A stretch of DNA of 64,000 bases from an uncultured Clostridia bacterium (GTDB lineage: Bacteria; Bacillota; Clostridia; Christensenellales; CAG-917). The notes below the pieces were generated by a model, which was not told the origin of the DNA, searched no databases, and saw only the letters and a program-made list of their open reading frames with translations. Numbering within the stretch: the stretch's first letter is position 1; every line of letters begins with the position of its first letter. The stretch is taken from positions 5,125 through 69,124 of the forward strand of contig CALVKR010000008.1 in the NCBI GenBank assembly GCA_944332995.1, given 5' to 3'. Position numbers and translations under genes: made by a program. Positions 12,891-22,153 of this stretch are shown here, one piece after another.

Positions 12891-13193
12891 TTATAACGTC
12901 ATAAAAAACTCTTTTTTGACCTTGCCGTATTCGTCGAATTCCACTCCGTCCGCCTCGAGCAATCTGCGCTGTTCGCCCTCTCCGCCAAAGGCGAATCCTT
13001 TTGACAGCGAGCCGTCTTTAAACACCACCTTATAGCACGGGATAGTTTCGGGCGACGGATTGACGTGCAACGCCCAACCCACCTGCCTCGACGCTTTCGG
13101 CTTGCCGCACAATAGCGCAATCGTGCCGTAACTTGCCACCTTGCCCTCGGGTACGCTCCGGACCGCTTCGTATACCTTTTCAAAAAAATTCAT
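12891..13193 (-). CDS. O6-methylguanine-DNA methyltransferase-like (Ogt/ATL, DNA-binding domain only)
   Basis: VPEGKVASYG.IA...G.P.A.RQVG.AL..NP....IPCYKVV, QRRLLEADGV. Confidence 0.86.
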   Translation of the reverse strand: MNFFEKVYEAVRSVPEGKVASYGTIALLCGKPKASRQVGWALHVNPSPETIPCYKVVFKDGSLSKGFAFGGEGEQRRLLEADGVEFDEYGKVKKEFFMTL

Positions 13194-13464
13194 ACCTTGG
13201 TTAATATATCACCTAAGACAAAATAAAGCAAGGAATACGCTTTATAAAAACTTTTTTTATCCTGTGTCTACCACCATTTACGTTTAAATCGCAAAAAACG
13301 TCAAATCGATGGTTTTCCTGAATTTTAGCCTTAGCTGAAAACTTCAACGTATTTGCCGTGACTATGCATTGTATCGCTTTAAATTTTCAAAGCAAAACAA
13401 ATAAGAAAATTCGGGCGCCTAATACGCAAAACCGCTATTGCCCGAAAGGGGTAAAAAGCGCAAA

Positions 13465-13788
13465 TCACAGCTTTAACGTAAGCGATATTGAATATATATC
13501 GTCAAAAAAAATTTTGTTATAATTTATCTCCAAAAACTTGTAGGCATTGCTTATCTTCGTCACCTCGCCTATGACCGTGACGTAGTGCCCGTTTTTATAT
13601 ATGCACGCTTCAACGGCGCTGCCTACCGAAAGTTTTAAAAGCGTATCGGATATGGCTTTTGTCGTTTCCTCGTCCAGCACCGTCTTTTCCACTCGGCTGT
13701 GGCGCTCCTCCACGGCGGCGAGTTTTTTTCGCAATCCCGTCAGGGCGTCAAAAGGCATAAACTGTTTTGCCCGCTCACTCCTCTCCAC
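13465..13788 (-). CDS. YolD-like protein
   Basis: RAKQFMPFDALTG signature. GTG start overlapping the end of the polymerase gene, with GAGG SD. Confidence 0.82.
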   Translation of the reverse strand: MERSERAKQFMPFDALTGLRKKLAAVEERHSRVEKTVLDEETTKAISDTLLKLSVGSAVEACIYKNGHYVTVIGEVTKISNAYKFLEINYNKIFFDDIYSISLTLKL

Positions 13789-15040
13789 CGTTGTGTCCTC
13801 CTATCATCTTGTTCCTCTCTCGCTGAGTCGCTCCCTCTTTAAAATCTATCGCCCGAAGCATAGCGTTTTTGCCGAATTTTTCTTTTATGCTCAGCACCGC
13901 CTTTTCCGCCTTGTTTTCCTTGGCAATCTTTTCGTAGTCGCAAAACAGGTCGTATCCCTCTGCACTCTCGTCCGCTATATCGGGGAAAGTCACGCACAGC
14001 TTTCTTATGGGCGCTCCCTTTACCGTGGTAGCGTCAAACGCCTTTAAGCCGTATTCGTTCAAAATCGAAAAGGCGTTCGTTGCGGCGTGCACGTTGAGCA
14101 CCTCGCCCGTGGACGGAATATACCCTCTCGAATAAACCACGCCTATGCCCACCTTGGACGTTATCATCTTCCGTTTTTTGAGCTGTTGGCTCGCCTCTAA
14201 AATCATTTCGGAAATTATTATCCTCGCCTCGTCAAACGGCGTATCTTTAAACAGCACCTGCGAATTGGAAATGGATTTAGATTTGCTTTTATAGTTATGG
14301 ATATCCTCGAGCGTGCAAGGCTCGATACCGTTTGCGTGGTCTATCATCAGTTCGGCGTCTATTCCGAAAATGCGGTATAAAAGTTCCTCGGGCGCCTCGG
14401 CTATGTCACGCATAGTCTTTATCCCGTATTTTGCCAGCCTGTCCGACTTACCCTTGCCTATTCCCCAGAAATCGGTGAGAGGCGTATAATCCCAAAGTTG
14501 CTCTTTAAACAGTTTTTCGTCAAGATAGCCTATGTGGTCCTTTGTCCTCTTAGCCGTTATATCGAGAGCTATTTTGGCAAGATACATATTCGTCCCTATC
14601 CCCACCGTGGCAGGAATTTTAAGACGGGAGGCTATCTCGTCAAGAAGCATTTTGGCAAACTGCACAGGCGTTTTTTCGTATAGTTTTAAATAATCGGTGG
14701 CGTCGATGAAAGCCTCGTCGATAGAATATTGATACACGTCCATTTTGTCCATATAGTCGAGGTAAATGGAATATATCTCGGCGCAATAATCCTCATACAG
14801 TCCCATGCGGGGCATGGCGACGATAAAATCCATTCCCTTGGGGATATCTCCTAAACGACAGCGGTTTTTGACGCCCAGCGATTTCATTTTGGGACTTATC
14901 GCAAGGCATATGGTATTCGAGCTTCTTGTCGGGTCGGCAACTACGAGGTTGACCTCAAACGGATTCAACTCCCTTTCGGCGCACTCGACCGAGGCGTAAA
15001 ACGATTTCATATCTATACATAAATAAGTCCTTTGCTTCAT
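13775..15040 (-). CDS. Y-family (UmuC/DinB-like) translesion DNA polymerase
   Basis: CIDMKSFYASVE and YSIDEAFID catalytic motifs, AKIA, FWGIG HhH, C-terminal FGKNAMLRA. Confidence 0.93.
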   Translation of the reverse strand: MKQRTYLCIDMKSFYASVECAERELNPFEVNLVVADPTRSSNTICLAISPKMKSLGVKNRCRLGDIPKGMDFIVAMPRMGLYEDYCAEIYSIYLDYMDKMDVYQYSIDEAFIDATDYLKLYEKTPVQFAKMLLDEIASRLKIPATVGIGTNMYLAKIALDITAKRTKDHIGYLDEKLFKEQLWDYTPLTDFWGIGKGKSDRLAKYGIKTMRDIAEAPEELLYRIFGIDAELMIDHANGIEPCTLEDIHNYKSKSKSISNSQVLFKDTPFDEARIIISEMILEASQQLKKRKMITSKVGIGVVYSRGYIPSTGEVLNVHAATNAFSILNEYGLKAFDATTVKGAPIRKLCVTFPDIADESAEGYDLFCDYEKIAKENKAEKAVLSIKEKFGKNAMLRAIDFKEGATQRERNKMIGGHNGGEE

Positions 15041-15378
15041 ACTTACCGCAGTCGGCTCTGTTTTGTCCGACTCTTTGTGTAAACCTTTAAACGGTTCCTT
15101 TTTTTATTTCCTTCGTTATTTATTTTGCTATTTACTTGCTTTGTTATTTATTTTGCCACTTATTATATTGATATTTATTTTTATTTTGTTGTGTCCTTTG
15201 ATATTGTCTGATTTATTATTCCCTTTATTTTCGTTAAACAACCGCTTCAGTCTTTTATTTTAAAAGGCTGTATTTAAATTTTTTACGGCGTTTAAACTCG
15301 ATACGGCATACCTAAAACTTTTTCAAATAATTTACGATAGCTTTTTGCCGTCCCCGTCTTTGCCGTCCGACTTTACGT

Positions 15379-15999
15379 CTATACAGTGTGTATGACCTTT
15401 TCCACGACGCCGACGATTTCCCACGGCACGGTAGGGCGAATATCTTTATATACCCTCTCTCCGTTTTCCGTAGCCGGGTTAGACGGCTTTAAATAGAGTC
15501 CGTCCCCGTCCTTGGCAAGAATTTTTGCCGTAGCTTCGTCGCCTATGAGTGCGATAACCACCTTTCCCACGGGTGCGCTTTTACAAGCGGATACCACCAT
15601 AAGGTCCTTATCGTATATCCCCGAACCCGTCATAGAATTTCCCTTTGCCTGCAAAATAAAATGCTCGCCCTCGCCGAAAATCTCGACGGGCAAGGTGACT
15701 GCGCCTTTGACGTTCTCTATGGCGCAGATAGGCTCGCCGCAGGCGCACTCGCCCACTATCAGAGCGGATTTAGTTGCGCCCGCCCTGAGGTTGTCGGGAA
15801 CGGCTATCGGGCAATCGGAATGAGTTGCAAGGCGTCCCCTCTCTTTTAAAACTTCCACGTCGAACGCCACTCTCGAAAGAGAGGAGTGTCCGCACCCCTT
15901 CATTATCTGTCTGAACGTCGGGCTTTTCCCCTCCGTCCTTTGGAACGCCAAAATAAAATCTTCCGTCCGCTCCAGCCTTTTTTCGTCGATAGGTTTCAT
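15379..15999 (-). CDS. LexA-like repressor (wHTH + S24 peptidase)
   Basis: SPTFRQIM..CGHSSLSRV wHTH, GECACGEP cleavage-site region, AKGNSM (Ser), EATAK (Lys). Confidence 0.85.
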   Translation of the reverse strand: MKPIDEKRLERTEDFILAFQRTEGKSPTFRQIMKGCGHSSLSRVAFDVEVLKERGRLATHSDCPIAVPDNLRAGATKSALIVGECACGEPICAIENVKGAVTLPVEIFGEGEHFILQAKGNSMTGSGIYDKDLMVVSACKSAPVGKVVIALIGDEATAKILAKDGDGLYLKPSNPATENGERVYKDIRPTVPWEIVGVVEKVIHTV

Positions 16000-16195
16000 A
16001 TATGCGTCAACCTCTCTTTATATTTTTACGTTTAAACGATGCGATGCCCTTTACCCCTCGCTTATGTTTTATTGCGCTTCACCTGCATTTGGCTTCACCG
16101 TTTATAAAACCTGCTCATCGCCATTTTCGCCGCAGGCTTATTTGCATTGCCTATTGCGTCGTATAACGGATAAAGGCAAAACGAATAAACTTAAC

Positions 16196-16244
16196 GGAAC
16201 GCCTCGTTCCTTTAAAATATACCACATACCAAAATTAAAATCAA
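16196..16244 (-). promoter_or_regulatory. lexA-like promoter (TTGATT-17-TATATT, extended TG) with palindrome GGAACG-N3-CGTTCC over the predicted start site
   Basis: -35 at 16244-16239, -10 at 16221-16216, palindrome at 16196-16210. Confidence 0.65.
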
Positions 16245-16285
16245 TTTATTTTAAAAAATAATTTTACCTATTATTGCCAAAAAAA

Positions 16286-16303
16286 CCGCACCCTGCGGTG
16301 CGG
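16286..16303 (-). terminator. Intrinsic terminator after the GNAT gene
   Basis: ccgcacc-N4-ggtgcgg, followed by a T-tract on the minus strand. Confidence 0.75.
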
Positions 16304-16394
16304 AAAATCAGATATAGGCCATGTTTACCTATCCGTTAGCAAGCAAAATTTTTGTTAAACTTTCATTTACAGCGTTTTATTTTTGCTTTATGTT

Positions 16395-16949
16395 TTATTT
16401 ACGGTCAAACAGCATTCGTTTCCCGTCCGGCGAATATATCTTTCCCGACACCGTGCCGCCCGACAGCTTATAAAATATCTGCGAATATTCACGGTAGTCG
16501 ACCTCCGCCTTTTGCGAAAGTATTAAAAATCTGCCGCCCACTTCCTCGACAAAATATCCCGTGTTTATAAATCCGTTTTTGAGATAAAAATTTAAGCGCC
16601 TTTTTCTTTCGTCTATGTTTGGCGCATTCTCGTCCAAAGGCTCAATGTGAAGCACGACCGTTTTGTCGGGGTGGCTATCCTTTAAATAAGTCAATATCTT
16701 ACCGCCGTAGCCCTGCCCCCTCACAGCTTCGGATACGGCAAGATAGAGCACCAAAAAGAGCGTGTCCGATTCCACCGAATAGGAAAAACCGCAAAAGGTT
16801 CCGCCGTCGTAAAACGCCGTCAAAGATATATCCCGTCTTTTGGAAAAACGTTTTATAAGAAAAAACGGCACTCTCTCGCTGCGAGGAAAAGCGTGCTTAT
16901 ACAGCTTTTTTATCTCTTTAAAATTTTTTATTTCGTTTAACGCCTGCAT
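16395..16949 (-). CDS. GNAT family N-acetyltransferase
   Basis: YKHAFPRSER, YLAVSEAVRGQGYGGKIL acetyl-CoA motif, RRLNFYLKNGF. Confidence 0.82.
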   Translation of the reverse strand: MQALNEIKNFKEIKKLYKHAFPRSERVPFFLIKRFSKRRDISLTAFYDGGTFCGFSYSVESDTLFLVLYLAVSEAVRGQGYGGKILTYLKDSHPDKTVVLHIEPLDENAPNIDERKRRLNFYLKNGFINTGYFVEEVGGRFLILSQKAEVDYREYSQIFYKLSGGTVSGKIYSPDGKRMLFDRK

Positions 16950-17402
16950 ACCGTCCTGCCTTACGTTGGAATATTAAAATCTGTCGTTCGTGTTAAAGCT
17001 AAAGATTTCACCTGTTAATTTTACCATATTAAAAGGATATGTCAACACAGCGTTTACCCTAAAATATTTTAATGCGGTTTTTGCCCAAAATATTTCAATG
17101 CGGCTTTATCTCCTAAAAATCATAAAATAAAACGCCAAAAACGCCGTTATCCTATACAGACGACGGTATGTAAAATTGCCCATACGATAAGCGACGCAAT
17201 CGTATGGCTTTAAAATCGGAAAGGACGTGCCGCAGCACGCCCTCTCCGATTTTTTTAGATTTATTGGGAGCTTTTAGTATGTCGGGCATTTTATATTATA
17301 GTTGCCCGAATAATTAAAAAGCAAATGTATTCCGTCCGACTTAAAATGATGAGCTGTATAAACTGCCATCGGCTAAAAACTCAAAAGTCAAACGGCATTA
17401 AG

Positions 17403-17744
17403 CTATGCTATTGCGCTTAAGATTTTATTGCGGTTTACCACCTTAGCTTTTTTGTAACAGAGGAATATATCGACAAAATTCCATATACCCAAAGTCAGCC
17501 AGCCCAGCAAAAGTTTGGCAATGCCTATACCTATGTCCCCTAAATAAAATCTGTCGATAGAAAGTCCCCCCAAAAACAAAGACAGCGCCACACAGCCGCC
17601 CGGGCTCTTAAGAGGCAATGAGGTTATATCCACAACACATTCGTCGCTTGCCGCTTGCAACGCCTGACGAACCATTGCAATGTCCTGAGACGGTATCTTA
17701 TCCGAAATCCTCGACATCACAATAGCAATTTTCTCGTTTGTCAT
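17403..17744 (-). CDS. TM2 domain-containing membrane protein
   Basis: LSLFLGGLSIDRFYLGDIGIGIAKLLLGWLTLGIWNFVDIF. AGGAG SD. Confidence 0.82.
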   Translation of the reverse strand: MTNEKIAIVMSRISDKIPSQDIAMVRQALQAASDECVVDITSLPLKSPGGCVALSLFLGGLSIDRFYLGDIGIGIAKLLLGWLTLGIWNFVDIFLCYKKAKVVNRNKILSAIA

Positions 17745-17782
17745 AATTTCTCTCCTTTTTGAAATTTATTTTTACATATTTT

Positions 17783-17861
17783 GGAACATTTTGTTCCATA
17801 TTTATATTATATAGAACAATATGTTCCGTGTCAAGCATAGCGGAACATTTTGTTCTAAAAT
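17783..17861. promoter_or_regulatory. Divergent promoters with three (G/A)GAACA-N3-TGTTC(C/T) operators
   Basis: Copies at 17783-17797, 17813-17827 and 17842-17856. Minus-strand TTGACA(17834-17829)-17-TATAAT(17811-17806). Plus-strand TAAAAT at 17856-17861. Confidence 0.8.
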
Positions 17862-17867
17862 TATATT

Positions 17868-18074
17868 ATGAATCAGTTCTCGACAAGAATCTATGAATTA
17901 AGACAGGAAGCCGGTATGACCAGAGCGGAAGTCGCTTCAAAGCTCGGAGTCTCCGTCCGCACCGTCTCCTATTGGGAAAACGGCGAGAGGGAATGCTCGT
18001 TTGACATGCTTTTATCCATCTGCGCCCTGTTCAACACTACAGCCGACTACCTGCTCGGAAAAAGCGAATATTAA
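17868..18074 (+). CDS. XRE-family HTH transcriptional regulator (68 aa)
   Basis: RIYELRQEAGMTRAEVA..LGVS.RTVSYWENGERE, TTADYLLG. Confidence 0.9.
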   Translation: MNQFSTRIYELRQEAGMTRAEVASKLGVSVRTVSYWENGERECSFDMLLSICALFNTTADYLLGKSEY

Positions 18075-18102
18075 ACCGCAAACGTGAAAATGTTTGCGGT
18101 TT
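18072..18102. terminator. Hairpin/terminator after the first XRE gene
   Basis: taaaccgcaaac-gtgaaaat-gtttgcggttta. Confidence 0.6.
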
Positions 18103-18419
18103 AAGACAATAAAATAATTTTTTAAATTTTATTTAAAATATTCGTATAAATTTTACTATTCTTTGCTCGTATTATCTTTCCGCCTCAAACAGCATAAACC
18201 CTAACAAGAAAAAGAAATCGTCTTGCAAAAATTGGTCTTCCAAAGTTTCAAAGTTTTCAATCAGCCATTCGTTGTCAACAAAACTACAAAAAGCGTAGCG
18301 GAATCTATTACGTTCAAAGAATATATTTTTTAATTTTCGCTTATAATTTAGATTATAAAATTTAATATGTCAAGCCTTTTATTTAAATTCTGGTAGTATT
18401 TATGTGTGGGGATTTAAAT

Positions 18420-18743
18420 ATGATTAGACTTCTGGAACTTAGATCAGAAAAGAAACTCTCTCAGCGAGATATGGCAAAAAAGTTTAATATCAGTCAAGGA
18501 ACCTACAACAATTGGGAAAACTCCAAGACTGAACCGTCGGTCGAACAACTTATTCAGCTTTCCGATTTCTTTGACGTGTCTGTTGACTATCTTATCGGAA
18601 GAAGCGACTCTTATCAATATGAATCAAAGCTCGAACCCAACGTCAAAAATTTCCAGATGCTGAAAATCTTTAACAACCTTTCAGAGGAAGACCAGGACGC
18701 ACTTATCAGACTGTTAAGTAACGAGAAAAATAAAAAATTTTAA
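18420..18743 (+). CDS. XRE-family HTH transcriptional regulator
   Basis: LLELRSEKKLSQRDMA..FNISQGTYNNWEN.KTEP, VSVDYLIG. Start at ATG 18420 (GGGGA upstream); 18402 is an alternative. Confidence 0.9.
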   Translation: MIRLLELRSEKKLSQRDMAKKFNISQGTYNNWENSKTEPSVEQLIQLSDFFDVSVDYLIGRSDSYQYESKLEPNVKNFQMLKIFNNLSEEDQDALIRLLSNEKNKKF

Positions 18744-18931
18744 TCGGTTAGTGCGGTTTTATCTGCCGGTTTATCTTACTTGCCGTTATATTTCATTTGC
18801 CGTTTTTCAACGGACATATTTTCACCTCAATTTATACAAACAATTTTCTATACAAACAAATTGCAGTTTTGCTCTTTTATTCTCTTAAAAATTATGGTAT
18901 AATATCAAAAATCAAAAAAAGGAGCTTTACA

Positions 18932-19222
18932 ATGTGCTTTAAAAAGGATAAAAAAACAAAAGAAAATAAAAATACCAAAAGTTCAGACAAAAATCAATCC
19001 CAAAAGGAAAGCACCGCAAAAAAGAATACCGCCAAAAACTACCATGTTTCAAAAAACGAGGACGGCAAATGGCAGGTCAAGTTTGCGGGCGGCGAAAAGG
19101 CAATAAAACTTTTTGACACGCAAGCCGAAGCAATCGACTATGCAAAACAGCTCGCCAAAAACCAAGACGGCAACATTACTATTCACAAAAGGGACGGAAA
19201 ACTGAGAAAGCAAAAATATTGA
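18932..19222 (+). CDS. DUF2188 family protein
   Basis: NYHVSKNEDGKWQVK..G.EKA...FDTQAEAI..AK.LAKNQ...ITIHKRDGK. AAGGAG SD before ATG 18932. Confidence 0.8.
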   Translation: MCFKKDKKTKENKNTKSSDKNQSQKESTAKKNTAKNYHVSKNEDGKWQVKFAGGEKAIKLFDTQAEAIDYAKQLAKNQDGNITIHKRDGKLRKQKY

Positions 19223-19416
19223 TTGGACTTTCTTTTGCGCAATCTATCATTTTGCTCATTATCTCTTTGACAATCCGATTTTCAGGCGAGGCTATATCCG
19301 CTCATGCGCCGCACGAATGTTTAAGGCAAATCGAGCCACTCGCTCACGCCAAACGGCAAATTGAAATATGAACAAAACGCATTATCGGCTGTAATTTTAA
19401 CAATATCAAACAAAAC

Positions 19417-19445
19417 AAAACCGCCTTCATAGGCGGTTTTTTATT
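19417..19445. terminator. Bidirectional intrinsic terminator
   Basis: aaaaccgcc-ttcata-ggcggtttttt. Confidence 0.8.
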
Positions 19446-19494
19446 TTGGTCAGCCCTTTTTAATTTCAAAAAATTTCCCTGCCTTGAAAGCCAC

Positions 19495-20850
19495 TTAGTT
19501 TTTAAAGCTGTGAATGGGCGCAGGTATAAGCCCTCCCCTTTTGATAAACTTATCGGCGCCGCTTTGGTGCACCGGCATTATGGGACATTTGCCCAAAAGT
19601 CCACCGAAGTTTACCCAATCGCCCACTTGCTTGCCCGGGCAAGGAATAACTCTAACGGCGGTTGTTTTGTTGTTTACCATACCTATCGCCGCTTCGTCTG
19701 CTATTATTGCCGAAATCGTCGAAGCGGAAGTGTCGCCGGGGATAGCTATCATATCAAGCCCTACCGAGCAAACGCAGGTCATCGCCTCGAGCTTGTCAAT
19801 GGATATCTTGCCGTTTTGCGCCGCCTCTATCATTCTTATATCTTCCGAAACGGGGATAAACGCACCCGAAAGACCGCCCACACGCGAGCTTGCCATAACT
19901 CCGCCCTTTTTGACTGCGTCGTTGAGCATGGCAAGTATCGCCGTCGTTCCGTGAGTGCCTACGCTCTCGAGCCCCACTTCTTCCAAAATGGCGGCAACGC
20001 TGTCGCCTCTTGCAGGCGTGGGGGCGAGTGATAAGTCAACGATTCCGAAACGGGCGTTAAGCCTCTTTGCCGCCTCCGTCGCTATAAGCTGCCCTGCCCT
20101 CGTTATCTTAAAAGCCGTCTTCTTTATCGTTTCGGCAACGGTCGTGAGGTCTGCTTCGGGAATGGCTTTCAATGCGTGCTCCACCACTCCGGGGCCTGAT
20201 ACGCCCACGTTTATAACAGTGTCCGCCTCGCCTATTCCGTGGAAAGCGCCTGCCATAAAGGGATTGTCCTCAACGGCATTGCAAAATACCACAAGTTTAG
20301 CACAGCCAAGCCCGTCGTGCTTTGCCGTCATATTCGCCGTTTGCAAAACTATCTCGCCCATAAGCCGCACGGCGTCCATATTTATGCCCGACTTAGACGA
20401 ACCCACGTTGACGGACGAGCAAAGGCGTTTCGTGTTGGCGAGCGTATAAGGTATCGTCTTTAAAAACTTTTCCTCATAGTCCGCCGTACCCTTATGCACC
20501 AAGGCTGAGTATCCGCCCAAAAAGTCTATGCCTATCTCGTCGGCGGCTCTGTCGAGCGCCTCGCCCACCAAAAAGGCGTCGTCGGGAAAACTTGCCGTGA
20601 TTATGCTTACAGGCGTCACCGACACACGCTTGTTTACGATAGGTATGCCGTATTCGCCCGAAAGACTGTCCGCCGTCTTTACGATATTTTCACCCTTTTT
20701 GCAAACGGTATCGTATACCGCCTTTGCCGTATCCTTTGCGTTTTGACGGATACACGGCAAAAGAGATATTCCCATGGTAACGGTCCTTATGTCAAGGTGC
20801 TCTTTCTGCACCATATCTATTGTTTCAAGCACGTCGAATTTATTGAACAT
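19495..20850 (-). CDS. PFL family protein (DUF711/UPF0210)
   Basis: [50 protein letters not shown]. Confidence 0.9.
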
Positions 20851-21394: not shown

Positions 21395-22153
21395 TTAAAC
21401 GTATTTTGCTATATTATACCTCTTTCCGCATACCGTTTTTTTGCCGTATTGAATTGCCTTACTCGGACAGCTGTTTATACACCTCAGGCATTGATAGCAG
21501 TTCCCTTTTTTCCATACGGGATTGCCGTTTTCAAGCTCTATTGCCTTTGACGGACAATTTTTGGCGCATGAGATGCAGGATATGCACTTGTCCTTTTCCA
21601 CCCAAAAAGAAGAAGTTGAGCGGGCAAACCTGTTAAAGACTTTATTTATCATTCCCGACTTGACAGCGGCAAGCGAGCCCACGTGCACTCGGTATTGCTT
21701 TTTGCCTTCCGAAATTTCCGCCGAAATTTTATCTATCTCGCCCTCGGCACTTTTTATCTTGTTTAAAACAACCTCGTCGCTTTCAAGTTCGCTGCCAATC
21801 ACATAGTTGTTTGGCATGGCAATGCTGTATGCGCTGCAAAGCGGATATATTTTTGAAAGTTTTTTCATTGCCGCCCCTGCGTCCTCTCCGCAGGTGCATA
21901 TCCCGAACGTAAAAGCGGTTGTTTGCTCGTTTGCGCCCTTAAGATTTTTCACGAAGTCCAGCATAGGCTCGGGAACACCCCAGGCGTATACGGGAAAAAC
22001 AAACCCTATATACTTTTCTGCCACGATTTTTTGCTCGGCGTTTAACTCGGCTAAGTCCAACGAGATAATATCGACCGCTTTATCGTCTATCTTATCCGCA
22101 ACCTTTTTTGCCACCCACTCGGAATTTCCCGTTCCCGAAAAATAGAAAATCAT
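21395..22153 (-). CDS. EFR1-family flavodoxin/ferredoxin fusion
   Basis: YFSGTGNS, FPVYAWG, MPNNY, two CxxCxxCxxxCP motifs. Confidence 0.88.
   Translation of the reverse strand: MIFYFSGTGNSEWVAKKVADKIDDKAVDIISLDLAELNAEQKIVAEKYIGFVFPVYAWGVPEPMLDFVKNLKGANEQTTAFTFGICTCGEDAGAAMKKLSKIYPLCSAYSIAMPNNYVIGSELESDEVVLNKIKSAEGEIDKISAEISEGKKQYRVHVGSLAAVKSGMINKVFNRFARSTSSFWVEKDKCISCISCAKNCPSKAIELENGNPVWKKGNCYQCLRCINSCPSKAIQYGKKTVCGKRYNIAKYV

Follow-up and report, generated by a model that had tools for sequence, protein, structure and literature searches.

Two predicted repressor-operator systems with a common GAAC-N5-GTTC core beside a translesion polymerase operon of an uncultured Clostridia bacterium

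The window analysed here is a stretch of 64,000 nucleotides (C8:5125-69124) of the genome of an uncultured Clostridia bacterium (1.54 Mb, 12 contigs, 98.7% complete). It carries a gene for a LexA-like repressor followed by genes for a Y-family DNA polymerase and a YolD-family protein and, 1.6 kb away, a gene for a 68-residue XRE-family protein (XRE68) divergent from a gene for a TM2-domain membrane protein. Four palindromes that share the core GAAC-N5-GTTC (Nx being a spacer of x nucleotides) lie at the promoters of these genes, one at the lexA-like promoter and three (O1 to O3) between XRE68 and the TM2 gene. They probably belong to two independent repressor-operator systems. The features concerned are the following:

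13465..13788, minus strand, YolD-family protein of 107 amino acids (PF08863); overlaps the end of the polymerase gene
13775..15040, minus strand, Y-family translesion polymerase (YqjW/UvrX-like) of 421 amino acids (PF00817, PF11799, PF11798)
15379..15999, minus strand, LexA-like S24 repressor of 206 amino acids, with a winged helix-turn-helix (HTH) N-domain and an S24 domain
16196..16210, minus strand, GGAACGCCTCGTTCC, which reads GGAACGAGGCGTTCC on the gene strand; box at the lexA-like promoter, predicted LexA-like operator of the GAAC-N5-GTTC type, overlapping the transcription start predicted near 16208-16212
16216..16244, minus strand, predicted lexA-like promoter: TTGATT, 17 nt, TG-extended TATATT (-10 at 16216-16221)
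17403..17744, minus strand, TM2-domain membrane protein; divergently transcribed cargo of the XRE module
17783..17797, plus strand, predicted XRE operator O3, GGAACATTTTGTTCC; immediately past the TM2 -10, covering the predicted start
17806..17834, minus strand, TM2 promoter TTGACA-17-TATAAT (12/12); the -35 is flanked by O1 and O2, as in other genomes
17813..17827, plus strand, predicted XRE operator O2, AGAACAATATGTTCC; in the 17-nt spacer of the TM2 promoter
17842..17856, plus strand, predicted XRE operator O1, GGAACATTTTGTTCT; abuts the XRE68 -10
17856..17861, plus strand, predicted XRE68 -10, TAAAAT, with the ATG exactly 6 nt later, at the transcription start predicted for 17868
17868..18074, plus strand, XRE68, HTH_3 protein of 68 amino acids (PF01381, 3.8e-16, residues 8-62)

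A scan of the window located the four palindromes at 16196, 17783, 17813 and 17842, where the first-pass annotation had placed them, and the promoter geometry is also as described there: TATATT and the 16196 box lie on the minus strand, and the 17813 site occupies the spacer of TTGACA-17-TATAAT. A fifth match, at 22121, has one mismatch and lies within a gene. The five window matches compare with 1.55 expected, and 2 of 100 shuffles reached five. Genome-wide, GGAAC-N5-GTTCC with at most one mismatch is found in five intergenic copies, four of which are these palindromes. Exact GAAC-N5-GTTC occurs 19 times in the genome and seven times between genes, as these four sites, two plain terminator stems and one copy in a 2.6-kb stretch free of open reading frames. 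The four palindromes are the sole plausible operator copies of this motif in the 1.54-Mb genome. GAAC-N4-GTTC, the canonical form, does not occur in the window and is found just twice between genes in the whole genome.

The 206-residue protein is encoded by the only LexA-type gene of the genome, a second PF00717 match being weak and partial. Its S24 domain was recognized with an E-value of 3e-21 (PF00717). The profile of its clade aligned over the full length (positions 9-196) to solved chains of E. coli LexA (E 2e-35) and also to 1lea, the DNA-binding domain of LexA on its own (E 0.0019). These alignments mark the protein as a LexA homologue that is genuine throughout its length, though divergent, and not a CI-type repressor. 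PF01726 gave a weak match for the window protein (E 0.024) and was above cut-off for one clade member, and the TIGR00498 score of 100.1 bits lies below the equivalog cut-off of 110.95. Ser122, Lys159 and Ala86-Cys87-Gly88 are invariant across the clade alignment; the predicted scissile position reads Cys87-Gly88, as in UmuD, instead of the Ala-Gly of LexA.

The 16196 box begins 5 nt past the TG-extended TATATT on the minus strand, and both this -10 and its TG are kept in the sister genome ('Acidaminococcus sp. CAG:917', FR901027.1), whose box has identical arms and differs at two spacer bases. Promoters were collected from the relatives, from the order and from the class and grouped by best BLAST hit, which gave 34 of this clade, 26 of canonical LexA and nine of a third class. 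The spacing of RAAC-Nx-GTTY was counted within the last 120 nt before the start codon. In this clade the spacing was N5 in 21 promoters and N4 in seven; in canonical LexA promoters it was N4 in 14 and N5 in none. The N5 total of the clade rises to 23/34 once two boxes of the window's own genus are included, which lie about 200 nt upstream and fall outside the 120-nt count. Measured from the start codon, the N5 boxes of the clade occupy -28 to -45, immediately past the -10. Among the seven N4 matches, three fall on the -35 region and a fourth within the promoter spacer of L120; N4 is the main site only in L122 and in L123 and L124, the latter two from one genus.

The half-sites follow the recognition helix. 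Helices of the type SSL(S/N)xVxRYV pair with GAAC half-sites, GSLATVQRYV with GAAAC...GTTTY and NSPSTVQRY with GGTACA...TGTTCC, the spacing being N5 in each case. A matrix trained on 11 sites from other genomes only (training range 13.6-24.5 bits), which carries little information outside the GAAC/GTTC arms, placed the 16196 box first genome-wide, at 17.9 bits. The first-pass annotation had named a lack of the motif at orthologous lexA-like promoters as an outcome that would refute it; with N5 boxes in 23 of 34 clade promoters, the arms kept in the sister and the first rank obtained from a matrix of other genomes, the motif is thus conserved. Its proposal that the operator at the lexA-like promoter is non-canonical, exceeding the SOS box of Bacillota by one base, is supported and extends to the clade. 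The 16196 box is most likely the autoregulatory operator typical of this clade, as predicted from these comparisons.

The reach of this operator appears to be short. Upstream of recA (C5:80951), uvrB and uvrA there was neither an N4 nor an N5 box, and no further plausible intergenic LexA-like site was present in the genome. A second box ahead of the polymerase gene (15041-15378) was looked for and none was found; nor was a terminator found on the minus strand between the lexA-like and polymerase genes. In the closest relative, G403 (G and L numbers designate our genomes and loci), the order is the same as here, with the LexA-like gene, a gap of about 385 bp and the Y-family polymerase gene. 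The regulon is likely a single operon of lexA-like, polymerase and YolD genes.

Four of five other genomes of the same genus are without a LexA homologue. The sampled genomes of the family have no canonical LexA (of the 'GYPPSVREIC...STSTVHGHL' type), which is present in other families of the order, and the majority are without any LexA homologue; the family appears to be without a classical SOS regulon. Elsewhere, clade members mostly adjoin serine or tyrosine recombinases and then small HTH genes, some of them sigma-like as judged by eye. This setting suggests that clade members elsewhere are repressors of integrated elements. A single-protein scan of genome contigs returned two loci, one in the sister and one in a Eubacteriales metagenome-assembled genome. 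Viral contigs contained no relative of the LexA-like protein, and their XRE matches were distant only. A third LexA-like class occurs in the same family (L013, L014, L016, L029, L031, L032 and L095), with the N-terminus 'MRSKNEQTLNNIL...YPTFQQIA'; it has mostly neither N4 nor N5 GAAC boxes upstream, L032 having one N4 box.

The three sites between XRE68 and the TM2 gene, spaced by about 30 bp, belong to a layout found far beyond this genome. Pairs of GAACA-WWW-TGTTC sites arranged as GAACAWWWTGTTC-N12-18-GAACAWWWTGTTC were found in 13 of 401 genomes of the order, from 11 genera, and never in the reversed control. G158 and G402 likewise have a third site. Among the 12 other genomes, 11 have an XRE68 orthologue next to the sites (44-60% identical at ten loci, 28% in G076); in the remaining one, G010, the contig ends ahead of where the gene would be. 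The conserved arrangement runs TATAAT (reverse), operator, AAGTCAAG, operator, TAAAAT or TATTAT, 6 nt, ATG, where AAGTCAAG represents the -35 element TTGACT of the divergent promoter. The distance from the -10 to the ATG is 6 nt in 10 of 12 aligned loci, this window included, which implies that the XRE68 mRNA is probably leaderless.

The divergent gene varies. It encodes a TM2 protein here, in G158 and in G010; other genomes have in its place a recurring, unclassified protein of about 170 amino acids, an ABC ATPase or other membrane proteins. A LexA-type repressor is lacking from three of the genomes with the sites: G389 has no S24 protein, and G010 and G375 have just weak partial S24-domain matches. 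With orthologues adjoining the sites even in such genomes, the constant partner of these operators is XRE and not LexA. The 17783-17856 sites look like a self-contained operator array, and XRE68 is the probable binder of O1 to O3. In G036 the module adjoins uvrA and a gene with a GIY-YIG domain (L033; G036:C79, 5-3676), and the recurring protein of about 170 amino acids replaces TM2 as the product of the divergent gene. The searchable literature yielded no link of TM2 with XRE and nothing usable on the operator of PBSX Xre. The operator consensus AGAACA-NNN-TGTTCT has the letters of the vertebrate steroid-receptor response element, which is a sequence coincidence only.

The two sets of sites were compared with the LexA-like matrix and with an XRE matrix built from 26 sites of 12 other genomes (training range 17.6-28.7 bits). 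All 52 half-site reads of the XRE-type sites have A at the sixth position (an A..T pair), and the centre is A/T. The first-pass annotation had described the sixth base pair as covarying. It does not covary but reflects a difference between two motif families, the sixth pair in the LexA-like boxes of orthologues being variable and in many cases asymmetric (the box of the sister genome, for one, reads GGAACA-ATG-CGTTCC). The scores were as follows:

16196 box: XRE matrix, 1.5 bits; LexA-like matrix, 17.9 bits (rank 1 in the genome)
O3 (17783): XRE matrix, 28.1 bits; LexA-like matrix, 14.1 bits (rank 10)
O2 (17813): XRE matrix, 26.1 bits; LexA-like matrix, 16.2 bits (rank 2)
O1 (17842): XRE matrix, 23.9 bits; LexA-like matrix, 10.4 bits

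The score of the 16196 box, together with the constant A of the XRE half-sites, makes binding of XRE68 at 16196 very unlikely. The ranks of O2 and O3 by the LexA-like matrix indicate that one-way cross-recognition, of the XRE operators by the LexA-like protein, is possible. The common core is evidently a property of both families wherever they are found, and not a local adaptation.

The interpretation that we consider probable is that of two independent systems, placed 1.6 kb apart, and we infer their binding, cleavage and read-through steps as follows. A dimer of the LexA-like protein would bind the single GAAC-N5-GTTC box overlapping its own transcription start and thereby repress the lexA-like, polymerase and YolD operon. 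When DNA is damaged, RecA filaments assembled on it would induce self-cleavage at Cys87-Gly88 through the Ser122/Lys159 dyad, and this cleavage would release the translesion polymerase. The cassette would thus be a minimal SOS-like circuit in a family without canonical LexA, with no boxes at recA or uvrAB. On the other side, XRE68 would bind three GAACA-WWW-TGTTC operators about 30 bp apart. Occupation of O1, which abuts its own -10, would autorepress its probably leaderless mRNA, and occupation of O2, in the spacer of the divergent promoter, and of O3, at the start site, would keep the TM2 gene off.

Several observations weigh against this interpretation. O2 and O3 (16.2 and 14.1 bits) fall within the training range of the LexA-like matrix, which is too uninformative to separate them from LexA-like boxes. 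The clade is not uniform: the close sequences L123 and L124 have GGAAC-N4-GTTC, G403 (50% identical) has a different palindrome, ACGACA-N7-TGTCGT, and several clade promoters show no site. In the window's own genus the box precedes the start codon by about 200 nt, as compared with about 35 nt elsewhere. Finally, read-through over the 338-bp A-rich gap to the polymerase gene is deduced solely from the absent terminator. As to the palindrome of G403 (L118; G403:C7), it lies past the -10 and goes with a different recognition helix, ISQSRTVSRVV, apparently a switch of specificity within the sublineage linked to the polymerase.

We considered whether the two systems might instead form a shared regulon with cross-talk, in which the LexA-like protein binds all four sites, DNA damage derepresses both TM2 and XRE68, and XRE68 acts as a second lock. 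TM2 would then be a damage-induced membrane effector, with a logic like that of YneA beside lexA in Bacillus subtilis. If so, the LexA-like protein should recognize the XRE operators, and O2 and O3 are indeed second and tenth genome-wide by its matrix, the N5 spacer of LexA-like boxes being without sequence constraint. Yet this matrix discriminates little beyond the common arms, and the XRE module exists with identical operators in the three genomes without a LexA-type repressor. Proximity would also fit, as a stretch of 1.66 kb contains four of the genome's seven exact intergenic sites and the neighbourhood is kept in the sister genome. At the loci examined, other clade members have one box, at their own promoter only. 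Both modules are also carried by G036 and G111, but on different contigs.

Co-occurrence was assessed in the 401 genomes, of which 13 have the XRE module and 38 a LexA-like match at E ≤ 1e-23, at least three of these 38 being canonical LexAs (L139-L141). Both modules were found together in three genomes, as compared with 1.2 expected, and in two as compared with 1.1 when this genome was left out. Co-occurrence gives coupling no support, and we regard the cross-talk scheme as unlikely. The earlier proposal of one regulator, or one local regulon, joining the mutagenesis genes with TM2 and XRE is not supported, given an XRE68 array that is self-contained in 11 genera, and a single shared regulon fits poorly with modules that are unlinked in the two other genomes having both and show no co-occurrence beyond expectation.

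Another explanation would be that the 16196 palindrome is no protein site at all, but a chance occurrence, an RNA hairpin at the 5' end of the transcript or a terminator-like stem. A consensus scan did list it as terminator-like, with a 6-bp stem and a 3-nt loop, and as RNA it would form a stem at the leader's 5' end. However, no T-run follows it, and the lexA-like leader of 200 nt shows no unusual degree of structure (z -1.15). Furthermore, the arm sequence itself is kept among orthologues, with no compensatory arm changes seen, and the position past the -10 is fixed in more than 20 promoters. This explanation is very improbable. That XRE68 is the sole binder of all four sites and controls the lexA-like/polymerase operon too is scarcely credible: the sites are close together, and 16196 and O3 agree in the outer five bases of both arms, but the 16196 box, with its G..C sixth pair and CCT centre, is far below the 17.6-28.7 bits of true XRE sites, and G013, G024 and G033 have an N5 box at lexA-like promoters without the operator pair, their best XRE68 match being 38% identical or absent.

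Two independent systems being the preferred interpretation, each can be set beside known ones. With canonical Gram-positive LexA, whose box is CGAAC-N4-GTTCG (Cheo), the LexA-like protein has in common a winged HTH with an S24 Ser/Lys dyad, GAAC/GTTC arms and, as predicted here, autoregulation at its own promoter and control of a Y-family polymerase with YolD. It differs by the N5 spacing, by a recognition helix reading SSLSRVAFDV in place of STSTVHGHL and by the UmuD-like Cys-Gly cleavage site. In addition, it scores below the TIGR00498 cut-off, has no boxes at recA, uvrA and uvrB, and belongs to a clade of patchy distribution, mostly beside recombinases. YolD has been proposed as the UmuD counterpart, YolD and a Y-family polymerase together being the Gram-positive counterpart of Pol V (PMC6511836).

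HdiR (Lactococcus, Streptococcus) and UmuDAb (Acinetobacter) are S24 repressors of LexA-less lineages that control little beyond an error-prone polymerase; in a published tree, HdiR falls among the CI-type repressors of phages (COG2932), whereas UmuDAb clusters with UmuD (PMC8565304). The present cassette is alike in pairing a putatively self-cleaving S24 repressor with a minimal set of genes, and HdiR is likewise of mobile-element or phage origin, but the protein described here is a LexA homologue over its whole length, winged HTH included. After HdiR and UmuDAb, the cassette appears to be a third case, of independent origin, in which an error-prone polymerase alone is under damage control. 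S24 repressors with CI-like four-helix N-domains also have a palindromic dyad with a fixed 5-nt spacer and motif variants that track subclades. They run a full SOS regulon, however, whereas a LexA-like N-domain here serves apparently one operon.

The XRE68 module resembles the Cro/CI and XRE switches of phage type in its small HTH_3 repressor, its 15-bp palindromes about 30 bp apart (two to three in such switches) and its back-to-back promoters. The lambda cI mRNA made from PRM is leaderless, as is probable for that of XRE68. In contrast to those switches, the module has no antirepressor partner and no lysis or integration genes, and its divergent gene is a variable one for membrane or transport functions.

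The N5-type LexA clade is a variant of a known LexA type, and the XRE68 switch is ordinary in type. No mention of 'GAAC-N5-GTTC' or variants of it was found in the searchable literature, which is weak evidence of novelty. The clade, with its GAAC arms one base pair further apart and half-sites that follow the helix, provides a natural series for studying dimer spacing in winged-HTH proteins, and scans for SOS boxes limited to N4 will miss N5 circuits. The predicted minimal circuit stands in a gut lineage otherwise without an SOS regulon. XRE68, for its part, is a cleanly conserved small switch that would explain three of the sites without LexA. A more far-reaching picture, which we hold to be rather unlikely, is that of a LexA subfamily residing mainly on integrative elements of gut Clostridia, in which the dimer geometry shifted from an otherwise rigid N4 to N5 and one member was kept, in a family that lost canonical LexA, as a one-operon SOS circuit for a translesion polymerase; its repressor may also occupy the XRE68 operators, whose arms and spacing are alike, making TM2 damage-inducible under a double lock.

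The surroundings of the two systems contain three further genes:

16395-16949, minus strand, GNAT acetyltransferase
18402-18743, plus strand, second XRE-family protein, 113 amino acids
18797-19222, plus strand, DUF2188 protein

An Rfam scan of 13000-19500 gave nothing credible. The second XRE gene is absent from the corresponding place in the sister genome, where DUF2188 directly adjoins XRE68, so that the two species differ by an insertion or deletion. Two genomes of the same genus, G002 and G004, have only the DUF711 and ACT genes in common with this region. In comparison with the sister locus (L034; G001:C27), an MGMT-like gene, the intergenic segment 13194-13464, the YolD gene and the polymerase gene are 99-100% identical in nucleotide sequence (compared over window positions 12891-15999) and the lexA-like gene 98.6% identical; the flanking housekeeping genes are 86-91% identical, and the intergenic segments 15041-15378 and 16000-16394 align in part only, at 75-78%. 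This mosaic suggests a recent exchange of coding blocks, with the A-rich spacers diverging separately.

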